A stretch of 64,000 nt of DNA, taken from the sequence record MT446411.1; one strand, 5' to 3'. The notes beneath the pieces are model-generated. The model was given only the letters and a program-made list of their open reading frames with translations. It had not been told where the DNA came from and did not search any database. A program made the translations under genes and the position numbers. This document shows positions 2,687 through 53,129 of the stretch, piece by piece; position 1 is the first letter of the stretch; every line of letters starts with the position of its first letter. This DNA comes from Escherichia virus TH40.

Positions 2687-3036
2687 GATTTACATTCCTT
2701 AATAAAGGTTTCAAGGTCATTACGTTTTGTTTTGTCTAGGAACTTATTATACTCAGCCATTGCTGAAGCATATCTCTTATATATGGGAGCATTCAAGGCG
2801 TTTGTATAACAGATATCATACACAACCGGGATAAAATAGGCCACAACAGCCGGAGCAATTATCATAAAGAAGCCCATCTCAATAGGCATGACTCCCTCGA
2901 TTGCAGCCATAACCGTGGTCATTACCAGACCAACCAGACCACCGAGCATGGCAGTGACAATCCCTAATAATAAATTGGCACCAATATCATATTCAGCCAA
3001 TTGATAAACATGTGATGCAAGACTAGGCCGTTCCAT
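2683..3036 (-). CDS. small membrane protein (two predicted TM helices)
   Basis: Reverse ORF; start set at internal ATG 3036 with AAGGAGG RBS; hydrophobic stretches LLLGIVTAMLGGLVGLVMTTVMAAI and FFMIIAPAVVAYFIPVV. Confidence 0.5.
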   Translation of the reverse strand: MERPSLASHVYQLAEYDIGANLLLGIVTAMLGGLVGLVMTTVMAAIEGVMPIEMGFFMIIAPAVVAYFIPVVYDICYTNALNAPIYKRYASAMAEYNKFLDKTKRNDLETFIKECKS

Positions 3037-10723: not shown

Positions 10724-11400
10724 TATATTACCTTATTAATTTTATCAAAAAGTTCTTCGAGTGTGCCATCGTTTTTAATAACAATGTCACTAGCTAGTGG
10801 TGGAAGTCCAGCTTCCGTAATGTGTGTATCAGTAGAATGATTTGCTTCATCGCGTTCTACAAAGATTATTGTAGCACCCATCGCCCGAAGCGAATCAAGT
10901 TCGTTCTTTTGGCGAACATCAGGGACAACGTAATATTTATATCCAGAATAGAGGTTGTCAAGATAATCGCACGCAAAAGTTTTAATCCAAAACATGCTGT
11001 CGAACTCTGTACAAACGATGTCAGTTCCAAGGGTCTGCATGAAACGTCTAACTGTCCAGGGCTCAACATTATTTAGTGTGTGAAATTCAATGATTTTACG
11101 AACCATATCTGGATTCGGAAGGTCAAGATTATATTGTTGTTTTAACCATTCAAGAGCATCAACCAGAAGAATATAAGCTTCGGTATTGTTCATTATCAAG
11201 GTTTTTTCACGGTCATAACCTTGTCCATCAAAATTTTCCAGGGTCAAATTGTGTGGCAGGTCTTGACGAACCCACGCTTTATAAAGCGCTTCTTTAATTG
11301 GACCAGCAAGTTGCCACTTTGTTCCGTTTTGACTAATAACATAATCAGCGGTCGTATCTTTACCACTGCGTTTTTTACCCACAATCGCAATTAATTTCAT
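10723..11400 (-). CDS. 1: deoxynucleoside monophosphate kinase gp1
   Basis: P-loop VGKKRSGKDTTAD, ...MGATIIFVER...NDTHITEAGLP, matches T4 gp1. Confidence 0.85.
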
Positions 11401-11996
11401 ACGTTTCTCATAGATGGATGCATTGACTTAGACCTGATTTCCTGTTGCATTGCTGCATTACTATCAATCTGTGGTCTACCTTCTATTATTATACCATCAA
11501 TTTCTACAGCAAAAGACTTAAAGTTAAAAGTTGCTGTTGCGTTGATAGCAGGGTCAGAATCTTCTTTATATGAATACTGAATCTCTGACAGGTCGGACGG
11601 CCATGCTCCATAGTAATGGATTGACATGACAATTTTGTCCTTGTTGTTATCTAAGATATGAAGCGTGACCGCTTCGGGACGACCCTTTGGATGCCATGCC
11701 TTTGATTCGTGTGTGATGTAGTTATTAAGCGAGAGCATCCATTTATAGATATCAAGCCATGCTCTTAAGTCTTTGTCACACAGAAAGTTAACAATCAGCG
11801 GGTCGAATTCTATTGTACTACCAGGAAGGCTGGAGCGATTTATACCTTGCGTTCCGCCGGGGACATCTGTAACAGGAATGTGAACTCCTGGGAGGGTAAC
11901 GTCTTGAACGTTGAGTTTAAAAGTCTGTGTGAGGTTTGAGTCGCTTACCTCTAATATAAAGTTAGTCGTGTTAGTTTGATTATATAAACCTGACAT
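11397..11996 (-). CDS. 3: gp3 tail completion / sheath stabiliser (start uncertain)
   Basis: Position between genes 1 and 2 as in T4; start placed at internal ATG with AAGGTG RBS. Confidence 0.55.
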   Translation of the reverse strand: MSGLYNQTNTTNFILEVSDSNLTQTFKLNVQDVTLPGVHIPVTDVPGGTQGINRSSLPGSTIEFDPLIVNFLCDKDLRAWLDIYKWMLSLNNYITHESKAWHPKGRPEAVTLHILDNNKDKIVMSIHYYGAWPSDLSEIQYSYKEDSDPAINATATFNFKSFAVEIDGIIIEGRPQIDSNAAMQQEIRSKSMHPSMRNV

Positions 11997-12007
11997 AGTG
12001 CACCTTG

Positions 12008-12046
12008 TTTGCTTTAAACCAATCAGTGTTATAATGGTTCTAGACC
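12008..12046 (+). promoter_or_regulatory. MotA-box middle-type promoter (TTTGCTTTA, 13 nt, TATAAT) followed by GGTTCTAGACC, oriented antisense to gene 2
   Basis: Plus-strand TTTGCTTTA-N13-TATAAT-GGTTCTAGACC in the gene 3 / gene 2 intergenic gap. Confidence 0.4.
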
Positions 12047-12081
12047 TTTTGTCCTTACCAATAACACTGACCGATAATAGA

Positions 12082-12906
12082 TTATGAATTTCTCCATACT
12101 TTCTGGGAAGAGAATCTTTTGCCTTTCGACATGAACTGCTGAAGGGGGAGTAATACCACATTTGCCCAGTCGCTGGGCTTGATTTCAGTGATACTACCTT
12201 TTATATTACCAGGTATATATGCTTTAATCATCTGGTCAGCCCCTTTAAATCCCTTCACCTTTGACCAATCAATCTTCAGATGAGTCTTGTTTGTAATCGT
12301 AGGAGTATTAGCATATTGCTTAAGAAGTTCCTCAAGGAACTCTTGACGTGCCTTCGGTGGAATATAGTGCAAGTTCAAACCGTACATCAAATTATGCTTA
12401 CCTAGACCAAGATAAATGATTAACGGATATTTATCCCAGTATGGAAGAGTATCCTTATGCTTTGCATCATAGATATAAGCATAAAGTTTGCCTGGTTGAG
12501 GTTTAGCCGTTACGTGACCGCGAACTGATTTCTTAATTGTCTCTGCGAACCATCTGGCGGATTTGGTGTTGCTTGCAGCGCCTTCGTTAGCAATCTTATC
12601 TCTTATGCTCTTCCTAAAGCTATTCACCATTATCAGCTGGCGTTCCGCCTTCGTAAGTTTACCAGCAGGTTTCTTTTTGAGCTTAGATACTTTATAAGCA
12701 GTCTGAATTCTTGAATGATACCTCGACATGCTTTTGGTAAAGGTCGAATAGTTGATTCCTTTCTCTTCAGCAAACTTCTTCGAGGTCATTCCTTTTTCTT
12801 TTGCTGTATAAAATTCAACCCCTATCTCAACCCATTGTTGTTCGGATTTACTGGGTTTCGGACCTGGTTTATCTGCAGATTCATTGATAAATGTAAAAAT
12901 ACTCAT
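12082..12906 (-). CDS. 2: gp2 DNA end protector protein
   Basis: 274 aa from ATG overlapping gene 4 stop (ATGA coupling); basic; synteny 3-2-4. Confidence 0.65.
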
Positions 12907-13352
12907 CCTTTCCATCCTAATTTTTTCAGTGAGTTTTCAGTGATTATCCTGAACGTTATACCCATCTTATCCGCGGTAGCTTGCGCAGCTTTCCATTTGT
13001 CAGAGTTAACGCTCCAGGTGTACATCTCGTTAATAAATCTCTTTTTACTCGCGGCTGTATTATTAACCGGTTTGGTTGGAGGTCTTGTTTCTTTTAATGG
13101 CTTAACTTCAAAAAAGAACTGTTGTCCTGTATCAAACTTAACCCAGAAATCCATATAATATCTGCGCTTTTTCCCTTCAGCATTGCAGAAGTATGGAATA
13201 ATCACAGTCTCAGAGCCCCATTGAACAACGTTCGGATGGTTGTCGAGCCATCTCATCAACCAAGCCTCCCAGCTTGACCGGTATTGTATTTTCTTCCAGT
13301 CGCCCTTATATTTTTCTATATTAGTGGGCTTAAATTTCCCGGAGTATGCCAT
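12903..13352 (-). CDS. 4: gp4 head completion protein
   Basis: 149 aa, synteny adjacent to divergent gene 53. Confidence 0.7.
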
Positions 13353-13400
13353 ATAGCCTCCTAATAAATATTGATATACTTATTTATAAATGGAGGCTTT

Positions 13401-14003
13401 ATGCTTTTTTCATTTTTTAACCCAATTGATTATGATGCTAAAACAATCAGAAAAAACTCGGCATCATTAACGAAAGAAGATGTCTTAAGCATCCCAATGA
13501 CTGACATCTTCAGAAACTATCGTGCGTATTTTGATAAGGTTGCGGTTAATTATACACCGAAAACATATTACATCGCCGGAGCTCCGAGACCTGAAGAACT
13601 TGCATATCAGCTCTATGGTAATACTCAACTCTATTGGGTTCTCCTTATGCTTAATAATATCTATGACCCGTATTATGGTTGGATATGTTCACAAGAATCA
13701 TCATATCAGGCATCAATTCAACGCTATTCGAATATAGGTGGTAATCAGGTTCTTTATCATGTAAATGAAGATGGTGAAAAATTCTGGAATCTTGTTTCTT
13801 ATCCTGATAATCCATACACATGGTATGATAAAGGTGATAAGAACAAATTATACCCACAGTATGAAGGCCCATTAGCTGCAGTGGATATCTACGAAGATGC
13901 TATTCGCAAAAATGAATATAAACGAGAAATAAAGATAATCGACCCTAATGATATCGAATCATTTATTTCGGCATTAATCCGCGAGATGGAGAAGGCGCTA
14001 TGA
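13401..14003 (+). CDS. 53: gp53 baseplate wedge protein
   Basis: MLFSFFNPIDYDAKT...IPMTDIFRNY...YGWICSQE matches T4 gp53; GGAGG RBS. Confidence 0.85.
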   Translation: MLFSFFNPIDYDAKTIRKNSASLTKEDVLSIPMTDIFRNYRAYFDKVAVNYTPKTYYIAGAPRPEELAYQLYGNTQLYWVLLMLNNIYDPYYGWICSQESSYQASIQRYSNIGGNQVLYHVNEDGEKFWNLVSYPDNPYTWYDKGDKNKLYPQYEGPLAAVDIYEDAIRKNEYKREIKIIDPNDIESFISALIREMEKAL

Positions 14004-46999: not shown

Positions 47000-47082
47000 A
47001 ATCTCTCACTTTTGATGTTATAAATATCATTATAAATTAGACCCGCTATACTTTCTTTCTCTGAAAGGAATTAATAGTCACA

Positions 47083-47124
47083 AAGGGTCTAGAACCATTA
47101 TACCGCATTTTTATTTGAAGCAAA
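47083..47124 (-). promoter_or_regulatory. MotA-box middle-type promoter (TTTGCTTCA, 13 nt, TATAAT) followed by GGTTCTAGACCC, upstream of rnlB
   Basis: Reverse-strand reading TTTGCTTCA-N13-TATAAT-GGTTCTAGACCC. Confidence 0.5.
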
Positions 47125-47129
47125 AAGGG

Positions 47130-53088: not shown

Positions 53089-53129
53089 AAGGGTCTAGAA
53101 CCATTATACAGCCATAAAATTAAAGCATT
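53089..53129 (-). promoter_or_regulatory. MotA-box middle-type promoter (ATGCTTTA, 12 nt, TATAAT) followed by GGTTCTAGACCC, upstream of uvsY
   Basis: Reverse-strand reading ATGCTTTA-N12-TATAAT-GGTTCTAGACCC; T4 uvsY is known to have a middle promoter. Confidence 0.55.

Follow-up and report, generated by a model that had tools for sequence, protein, structure and literature searches.

Middle promoters of phage T4 are characterized by a MotA (Mot) box near -30 (consensus: (a/t)(a/t)(a/t)TGCTTtA), which is separated from the -10 element by 12 +/- 1 bp (PMC2988021). The T4 record and a review of T4 replication identify oriF with the uvsY middle promoter (PuvsY), the transcript of which forms an R-loop primer, and oriG with a middle promoter situated within late gene 34 and directed opposite to it. 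The subject of this report is a cassette of the same type in a 64,000-nucleotide (nt) stretch of Escherichia virus TH40 (MT446411.1), hereafter called the window. It is found in the gap between the start of gene 3 and the stop codon of gene 2, where it faces antisense into late genes 2 and 4. We consider it probable, though by no means certain, that the cassette is a MotA/AsiA-dependent middle promoter giving rise to a non-coding RNA antisense to both genes, for which an "anti-late" role is the likeliest.

According to a review from 2010, no antisense or trans-acting regulatory RNA had been characterized in T4 by then; a 2024-26 preprint describing T4 dRNA-seq reports 150 start sites, 22 of which are antisense (GEO GSE255091). 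Given the precedent of P34i/oriG (ori34), a Mot promoter lying antisense in a late region is a known kind of element. P34i is likewise of the MotA type (TTTGCTTCA, 13 nt, TATAAT, GGTCCCAG) and antisense within the late region, but it lies inside the gene 34 coding sequence and has been mapped and proven to function as an origin, whereas the gap element is intergenic, overlaps a hairpin of the late mRNA, and is not known to act as an origin. A further likeness is to the classical "anti-late RNA" of T4, which Notani in 1973 and Frederick and Snyder in 1977 are said to have described in connection with delayed-early control. This RNA reportedly pairs with late messages, appears ahead of late transcription, and requires phage protein synthesis; RNA of that kind is what would come from a MotA-dependent antisense promoter within a late operon. 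By comparison, anti-late RNA is said to have been defined in bulk by hybridization.

The promoter cassette and its sister copies

The gap measures 84 nt and the cassette is read on its plus strand (Table 1). The Mot box fits the 9-nt consensus exactly, the tenth (upstream) position being G instead of A/T; it lies 13 nt from the -10, within the 12 +/- 1 rule, and the -10 itself is a perfect TATAAT preceded by TGn, as befits a middle promoter. From the mapped start of T4 PuvsY (TATAAT, 6 nt, A), transcription is predicted to begin at A 12042. An earlier note on this DNA had read TTTGCTTTA, 13 nt, TATAAT and GGTTCTAGACC at 12008-12046 of the plus strand, which matches the letters exactly. The cassette is indeed on the plus strand, as the sole match there of the full pattern, and the location in the gap and the antisense orientation given by that note were found as described. 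What it had termed an "identical leader" is indeed the same in three copies, but is really the discriminator together with the first few transcribed bases.

The 17-mer TATAATGGTTCTAGACC occurs three times in the window, where 0.15 occurrences are expected, and the count is still three when three mismatches are allowed. The pattern TGCTTYA-N11-13-TATAAT yields four matches against 0.03 expected, and only the one in the gene 3/2 gap is on the plus strand. Because of these two excesses, the cassette is not a chance motif. The window region is 93-98% identical to T4-like phages of the VR7/SP18 group (Gaprivervirus), among which VR20, VR25, and VR26 each carry the 17-mer exactly three times per genome.

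The two sister copies lie upstream of rnlB and of uvsY in reverse orientation, as had been noted earlier. The former is located within a 130-nt gap between 24.2 and rnlB (window 47000-47129); a cassette is also present there in RB69 and in Serratia phage CBH8, and is missing from T4 and PG7. The T4 24.2/rnlB gap is only 9 nt long; the mapped PrnlB of that phage, situated within 24.2, is non-homologous. A fourth Mot-type promoter of the window (2746-2770, minus strand: TGCTTCA, 12 nt, TATAAT, AAGTTCCTAGAC) is found in the e.x region of hypothetical genes, where it reads in sense toward a ribosome site and an ATG; apart from a two-base displacement, its TTCCTAGAC looks like the family box.

A comparison of six lineages reveals that the bases following the -10 match another copy in the same genome, mostly its own PuvsY (Table 1), with CBH8 having a gap copy that is nearer to its rnlB-upstream copy than to PuvsY. 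Since these boxes match within genomes, lineage-specific changes are common to copies that lie tens of kb apart, from which it follows that the copies evolve in concert, the cause being either gene conversion or common selection. T4 PuvsY (oriF) and the gap copy have in common a Mot box, a spacer of 12-13 nt, TATAAT, and the same lineage-specific box after it; the identity extends over 17-20 nt in the window, and T4 has TGGTATAATGnnTCTAAGTCC at both sites. They differ in that PuvsY has been mapped and is followed by a ribosome site and the uvsY open reading frame (ORF) in sense, whereas the gap copy is unmapped, is antisense to late genes, and has no ORF.

The T4 genome was assembled and the 58 mapped middle promoters of Hinton 2010 were aligned to it; all 58 fall on the minus strand. 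The pattern WWTGCTTYA-N11-13-TATAAT has six sites in T4. Four are on the minus strand and have all been mapped as active (P45.2, P1, PuvsY, and P34i), while the two perfect sites on the plus strand are both unlisted: the ortholog of the gap element (~76,000) and a site in the srd/modA gap (~11,897). The T4 gap ortholog reads AATGCTTTA, 13 nt, TGG-TATAAT, GGGTCTAAGTCC on the plus strand, its start being predicted at ~76,000. Four T4 sites belong to the family TATAATG..TCTAAG.CC (Table 1), and the two on the plus strand have a longer tail in common, comprising TCTAAGTCC, TTCCATT, and ATAGATTA, which ends at the stop codon of the upstream minus-strand gene.

The srd/modA site (T4 NC_000866, 11,862-11,910, plus strand) consists of AATGCTTTA, 12 nt, TATAAT, and GAATCTAAGTCCTTCCATTATAGATTA, the last being exactly the box that follows the -10 of PuvsY. 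It faces antisense into early genes modA and modB, and RB69 has a copy at the same place (L063, 4089-4130, plus strand). The srd/modA and gap sites thus have the same cassette, the same antisense orientation, and a common tail; they differ in that the former faces early genes and the latter late ones. No exact-motif equivalent of the srd/modA site was found in the VR7-group genomes, which hold three copies of the 17-mer each.

No feature is annotated at the gene 2/3 junction in T4 (NC_000866, AF158101) or in the records listed among the 504 T4-group genomes with the element. A literature search, from which the primary origin-mapping papers were absent, turned up no paper describing a MotA promoter that fires antisense here, and the text on the motA-amber RNA-seq from the Hinton laboratory holds no locus-level antisense data. 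The gap site would appear to be a new, or at least uncatalogued, middle promoter of a known type.

Conservation of the junction and the occurrence of MotA

The junction was gathered from 15 viral contigs plus annotated genomes. The element is kept in ten independent lineages, always facing away from gene 3: the window group, a Dhakavirus-like lineage (L021), L026, Serratia CBH8 (L029), L030, the Acinetobacter-like L032, T4, RB69, Karamvirus PG7, and Acinetobacter phage AC4. These span gp3 identities from 100% to about 46%. Their boxes take the form nGCT(T/A)nA (PG7: GCTTTC) with a spacer of 12-14 nt. In an alignment anchored on the -10, TATAATGG, TATAAT, and the GG that follows are each present in 10/10 lineages and the T-A at the start site in 9/10, and the consensus runs on as TATAATGGTTyTA through the predicted start. 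The TATAATGG/-10 columns are the best conserved of the stretch, above the adjoining 5' coding end of gene 3. The structure put forward in the earlier note, that of a MotA-box middle-type promoter, is borne out by this anatomy and by a position, strand, and spacing kept in ten lineages. In Jiaodavirus MotA is present but genes 2 and 3 abut and the gap is gone, and Bragavirus has a different repeat at the junction.

Homologs of MotA occur in Tequatro-, Mosig-, Karam-, Winkler-, Dhaka-like, Gapriver-, and Jiaodaviruses, and in Aeromonas 44RR-like and Acinetobacter phages; the listings show none for Krisch-, Pseudoteven-, or Slopekviruses, in line with Nolan et al. 2006. Mot-type boxes at the gene 2/3 junction are confined to the MotA-encoding groups, and almost all T4 relatives with MotA have retained the element, as has T4 itself. 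Neither motA nor asiA lies within the window. The Gaprivervirus MotA homolog of phage DK-13 (L062, 301-909) shows ~33% identity to T4 MotA, and despite this figure the Mot boxes of the window are not distinguishable from the T4 consensus.

The MotA-less phages have a promoter of another type at the same spot. In the Slopekvirus KpnM1 the junction carries TTGACC-17-TATAAT and TTGAAT-17-TATAAT, both of sigma70 type and facing away from gene 3, which drive an oppositely oriented ORF between genes 2 and 3. Oppositely oriented ORFs are also found between these genes in Krischvirus and Pseudotevenvirus; those of the different MotA-less genera show no kinship to one another. A putative prereplicative promoter directed away from gene 3 is thus deeply rooted in the synteny of the junction; it is of Mot type only where MotA exists, and in the T-even group there is no ORF for it to serve.

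The predicted antisense RNA and competing explanations

In the proposed mechanism, the middle-mode polymerase (sigma70 remodelled by AsiA, with MotA on the box) would initiate on the plus strand near A 12042, and the RNA would pair with the gene 2/3 intercistronic region and then with genes 2 and 4. This prereplicative "anti-late" transcript would counter mistimed minus-strand expression of the late 4-2-3 unit, either by interference from convergent transcription or by pairing with read-through or early-late mRNA. Since gp2 binds DNA ends, mistimed gp2 could plausibly be harmful; the plus-strand srd/modA copy of T4 would likewise face a toxic early gene, modA. Early leftward transcripts from the oriE region, said to have been described by Vaiskunaite in 1999, could reportedly read into genes 4-2-3. 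Judging from its sequence, the gap promoter presumably fires in vivo.

From the start site to gene 53, no plus-strand ORF is conserved between the window and T4. A hidden downstream gene was considered and rejected: the plus-strand ORFs are of 41 and 147 amino acids in the window versus 45 and 61 in T4, with no similarity. The Rfam 15 covariance models gave no match up to E = 1 on either strand of 11700-13500, and a structured plus-strand RNA was ruled out for the window lineage, folding from the start site giving z = +1.3. The one terminator-like hairpin (Table 1) belongs to a type whose count is no higher than in shuffled sequences and lies in a segment constrained by gp2 coding; the homologous position scores as a terminator in 3/8 lineages (window, L026, and PG7).

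Several points weigh against an antisense middle transcript. The T4 ortholog is missing from the 58 mapped middle promoters despite its perfect consensus; being antisense, it may simply never have been probed, or it may have been probed and found silent. The terminator search found no defined 3' end for the RNA, and its role, whether silencing, interference, or R-loop priming, we can only infer. The loss of the element in MotA-encoding Jiaodavirus shows that it is dispensable. Part of the sequence conservation could also stem from gene conversion with PuvsY and from minus-strand constraints, namely the hairpin and the gene 3 translation start region.

These last considerations can be taken further, to a plus-strand promoter that is silent or irrelevant, in a gap kept for the intercistronic hairpin of the late mRNA and the gene 3 translation start region, with the promoter look kept up passively through gene conversion from cassettes of the PuvsY type. 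The minus-strand hairpin of the window has a predicted energy of -27.9 kcal/mol (z = -3.6), and a stable late-mRNA hairpin is also found in RB69 (z = -3.75), PG7 (-2.0), and T4 (-1.3). The stem sequences vary by lineage with some compensatory change, for which covariation support is modest. The Mot box lies just upstream of the gene 3 ribosome site, the concerted evolution of the copies is evident, and the site is not among the mapped T4 promoters, all of which fit a silent promoter. In T4, RB69, and PG7, however, both hairpin arms lie downstream of the predicted start, the first base being at +4 to +7, and the cross-lineage consensus fold is poor because the VR7-group stem sits in another register. 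Since the hairpin shifts register while TATAATGG, the box, and their spacing stay put, it cannot explain the promoter-like conservation and is a separate late-mRNA element that overlaps the promoter. A hairpin requires no perfect sigma70 -10, GG discriminator, or Mot box at 12-14 nt; passive conversion would not hold orientation and position over ten lineages; and MotA-less phages have another promoter type at the same spot in the same direction. A silent promoter is therefore unlikely, although it retains some weight. As a separate observation, the hairpin of T4, RB69, and PG7 would also place a stem-loop close to where the antisense RNA begins.

The cassette may instead be an origin element of the oriF/oriG type, in which a persistent R-loop formed by the transcript would prime leading-strand synthesis rightward, in the direction of the gene 4/53 divergence and the oriE region. 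The closest paralog of the gap copy is PuvsY, the oriF promoter, in most lineages checked; oriG, too, has its Mot promoter antisense within a late gene and with TATAATGG; and the cassette supplies the middle-mode promoter called for in a minimal origin of ~100 bp. The annotated oriE is 3.4 kb away from the T4 ortholog, which points toward it. The proximity to origins is a post hoc match, and the PnrdC.7 copy points away from oriC. Downstream AT content, purine bias, and duplex stability do not set even the proven origins apart from ordinary middle promoters: from +1 to +60 the A+T content of the T4 ortholog is 68%, which is average, and as oriF and oriG are no outliers either the measure does not discriminate. 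Plasmid screens for autonomous replication in T4 reportedly gave only ori(uvsY) and ori(34). We regard an origin function as quite unlikely. The five active T4 origins lie at 16.8 (A), about 59 (C), 79.4 (E), 115.3 (F), and 152.9 kb (G), and the T4 cassettes (11.9, 53.3, 76.0, and 115.4 kb) together with P34i (153.0 kb) are each within ~5.6 kb of one of them, a pattern noted post hoc; the two plus-strand copies point toward oriA and oriE.

A dispersed cassette might also persist as a mobile or recombinogenic element of the PeSL/PmSL type, with the main effect of providing homology for modular exchange and marking an insertion slot rather than of making a useful RNA. In the published concept (Arbiol 2010; Comeau 2014), a stem-loop stands just upstream of a promoter, which is followed by a ribosome site and a start codon. 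Resemblances include a short multi-copy unit of promoter and stem-loop near indels, and a version with a Mot box (PmSL) has been described. Three to four near-identical copies occur per genome (three in the VR7 group, four in T4) at positions that are lineage-specific save for two fixed ones, homing endonucleases have recurrently inserted at the edge (VR7, L025, RB33, a51, and AC4), unrelated oppositely oriented ORFs fill the slot in other genera, and Aeromonas phage 31 annotates the gap as a dispersed repeat. The defining PeSL layout is nevertheless absent, as the repeat spans the -10 (window group) or follows the start (T4, RB69, and PG7) instead of preceding the promoter, and the site has no ORF and lies in a conserved core region that is not hyperplastic. 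Unlike a shuffling element, it is stable in junction position and orientation over deep divergence. Such a purely recombinational role is decidedly improbable; dispersal of this kind is compatible with an active promoter.

Of the two outcomes that had been proposed for this promoter, the antisense non-coding RNA is the one favored here, while an early or middle route to express genes 53 and 5 finds no support. The antisense path of ~1.3 kb before gene 53 follows, as claimed, from a start at about 12042 and a gene 53 start near 13371 (plus strand). For a middle-time route to 53, 5, and downstream genes there is the geometry, 53 being the next sense gene at ~1.33 kb. The polymerase would, however, have to run through 1.3 kb of antisense sequence that is not translated and in which no ORF is conserved, and long untranslated RNA is a typical substrate for Rho termination. 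Furthermore, 53 and 5 code for late structural proteins and are not known to be needed early, and in Slopek- and Krischviruses the short ORF behind the equivalent promoter is convergent with gene 2 and not with 53. This route is very improbable indeed.

Neighboring features and wider meaning

The gene order, taken from the VR7 annotation, is 4, 2, 3, 1, 57A, 57B on the minus strand and 53, 5 on the plus strand. No late promoter TATAAATA for gene 3 was seen on the minus strand of the gap. The block GATAATAGATTA next to the gene 2 stop codon is kept in the window, the L021 and L026 lineages, T4 (as GATAATAGAATTA), and RB69. Homing-endonuclease genes have repeatedly been inserted between gene 2 and the gap in several genera (VR7, L020, L025, RB33, a51, and AC4), and where the junction was read (VR7, L001 2570-2585; L020; L025) the insert starts directly after GATAATAGATTA. 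The endonuclease gene is on the gene 2/3 strand, so that the gap Mot promoter would fire antisense into it.

In Aeromonas phage 31 the gene 2/3 gap (L045, 789-859) carries the annotation "repeat_region 31repeatA_3", placed on the strand opposite to that of gene 3, and is described as similar to further copies in phages 31 and 44RR; TATAAT occurs there within a stem (TATCCTTTA...TAAAGGATA), and a Mot box is not obvious. L030 possesses a CAGGGC-UUCG-GCCCUG tetraloop hairpin (~1470-1500, gene 3 strand) that falls between the Mot box and the ribosome site of gene 3, and CBH8 has a related CAGGG...CCCUG stem in that place. Both are of the extra-stable type classically described for T4 intercistronic regions.

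Table 1. Features of the gene 3/2 gap, its sister cassettes, and their counterparts in related phages (window coordinates unless a phage is named).
Feature	Position	Strand	Remark
Gene 3 (tail completion, sheath stabilizer)	11397..11997	-	ribosome site between start codon and Mot box
MotA (Mot) box TTTGCTTTA	12008..12016	+	fits (a/t)(a/t)TGCTT(t/c)A
Spacer AACCAATCAGTGT, 13 nt	12017..12029	+	sequence read
Extended -10, TGT-TATAAT	12027..12035	+	sequence read; TGn 12027-12029, TATAAT 12030-12035
Discriminator and initial transcribed box GGTTCTAGACC	12036..12046	+	same in all three window copies
Long imperfect inverted repeat, hairpin in late mRNA	12018..12075	-	genes 2/3 intercistronic; encloses complement of -10
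Conserved block GATAATAGATTA	12073..12084		adjoins gene 2 stop codon (TTA 12082-12084 on plus strand, complement of TAA)
Gene 2 (DNA end protector)	12082..12915	-	first gene met antisense by predicted transcript; stop codon 12082-12084
Terminator-like hairpin GCCCAGTCGCTGGGC then TTGATTTCA	12164..12187	+	~123 nt past predicted start; weak candidate
Gene 4 (head completion)	12903..13352	-	second gene met antisense
rnlB-upstream cassette TTTGCTTCA, 13 nt, TATAAT, GGTTCTAGACC	47086..47124	-	sense, 24.2/rnlB gap
uvsY promoter cassette AATGCTTTA, 12 nt, TATAAT, GGTTCTAGACC	53092..53129	-	equivalent of T4 PuvsY (oriF promoter)
T4 family member, srd/modA gap	T4 11,885	+	unlisted
T4 family member, PnrdC.7	T4 53,337	-	
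T4 family member, gene 3/2 gap	T4 75,988	+	unlisted
T4 family member, PuvsY	T4 115,383	-	
T4 hairpin	L050 25968-26015	-	
RB69 hairpin	L044 784-831	+ in locus	
PG7 hairpin	L053 611-648	+ in locus	
Post -10 boxes, window			gap GGTTCTAGACC; PuvsY GGTTCTAGACC; rnlB-upstream GGTTCTAGACC
Post -10 boxes, RB69			gap GGTTTTAGGTC; PuvsY GGTTTTAGGTC; rnlB-upstream GAATCTAGGTT
Post -10 boxes, PG7			gap GGTTTTGAGTTC; PuvsY GGTTTTGAGTTC; rnlB-upstream none
Post -10 boxes, T4			gap GGGTCTAAGTCC; PuvsY GAATCTAAGTCC; rnlB-upstream none
Post -10 boxes, L021 group			gap AGTGTATAATGGTCCTAGGTC; PuvsY AGTGTATAATGGTCCTATGGT (match only partial)
Post -10 boxes, CBH8			gap GGTTTCAGGTCC; PuvsY GGGTTTACGGG; rnlB-upstream GGTTTCCAGCCC

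A broader and rather speculative extension, which we hold to be unlikely as a whole, is that the T-even "uvsY-type" cassettes form a family whose two antisense members are dedicated non-coding units, acting as R-loop primers or as sources of anti-late and anti-early RNA. If it were true, they might be R-loop primers feeding the poorly understood oriE and oriA, which would contradict the claim that no middle promoter lies near oriE, or they might be the long-sought specific sources of MotA-dependent anti-late and anti-early RNA that enforce the shut-off of gp2 and ModA.

Both middle transcription and origin firing of T4 are textbook material, and the list of middle promoters is regarded as close to complete. 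An uncatalogued perfect-consensus promoter that serves no gene, evolves in step with that of oriF, and is shared by T4 and Acinetobacter phages would introduce a class of middle transcripts that are antisense by design, and would tie "anti-late RNA", long ago observed in bulk, to a concrete locus. It also raises the question of whether origins beyond oriF and oriG use middle-promoter R-loops. Should the promoter prove silent, it would still be a useful example of how gene conversion and constraints on the opposite strand can preserve a consensus promoter.

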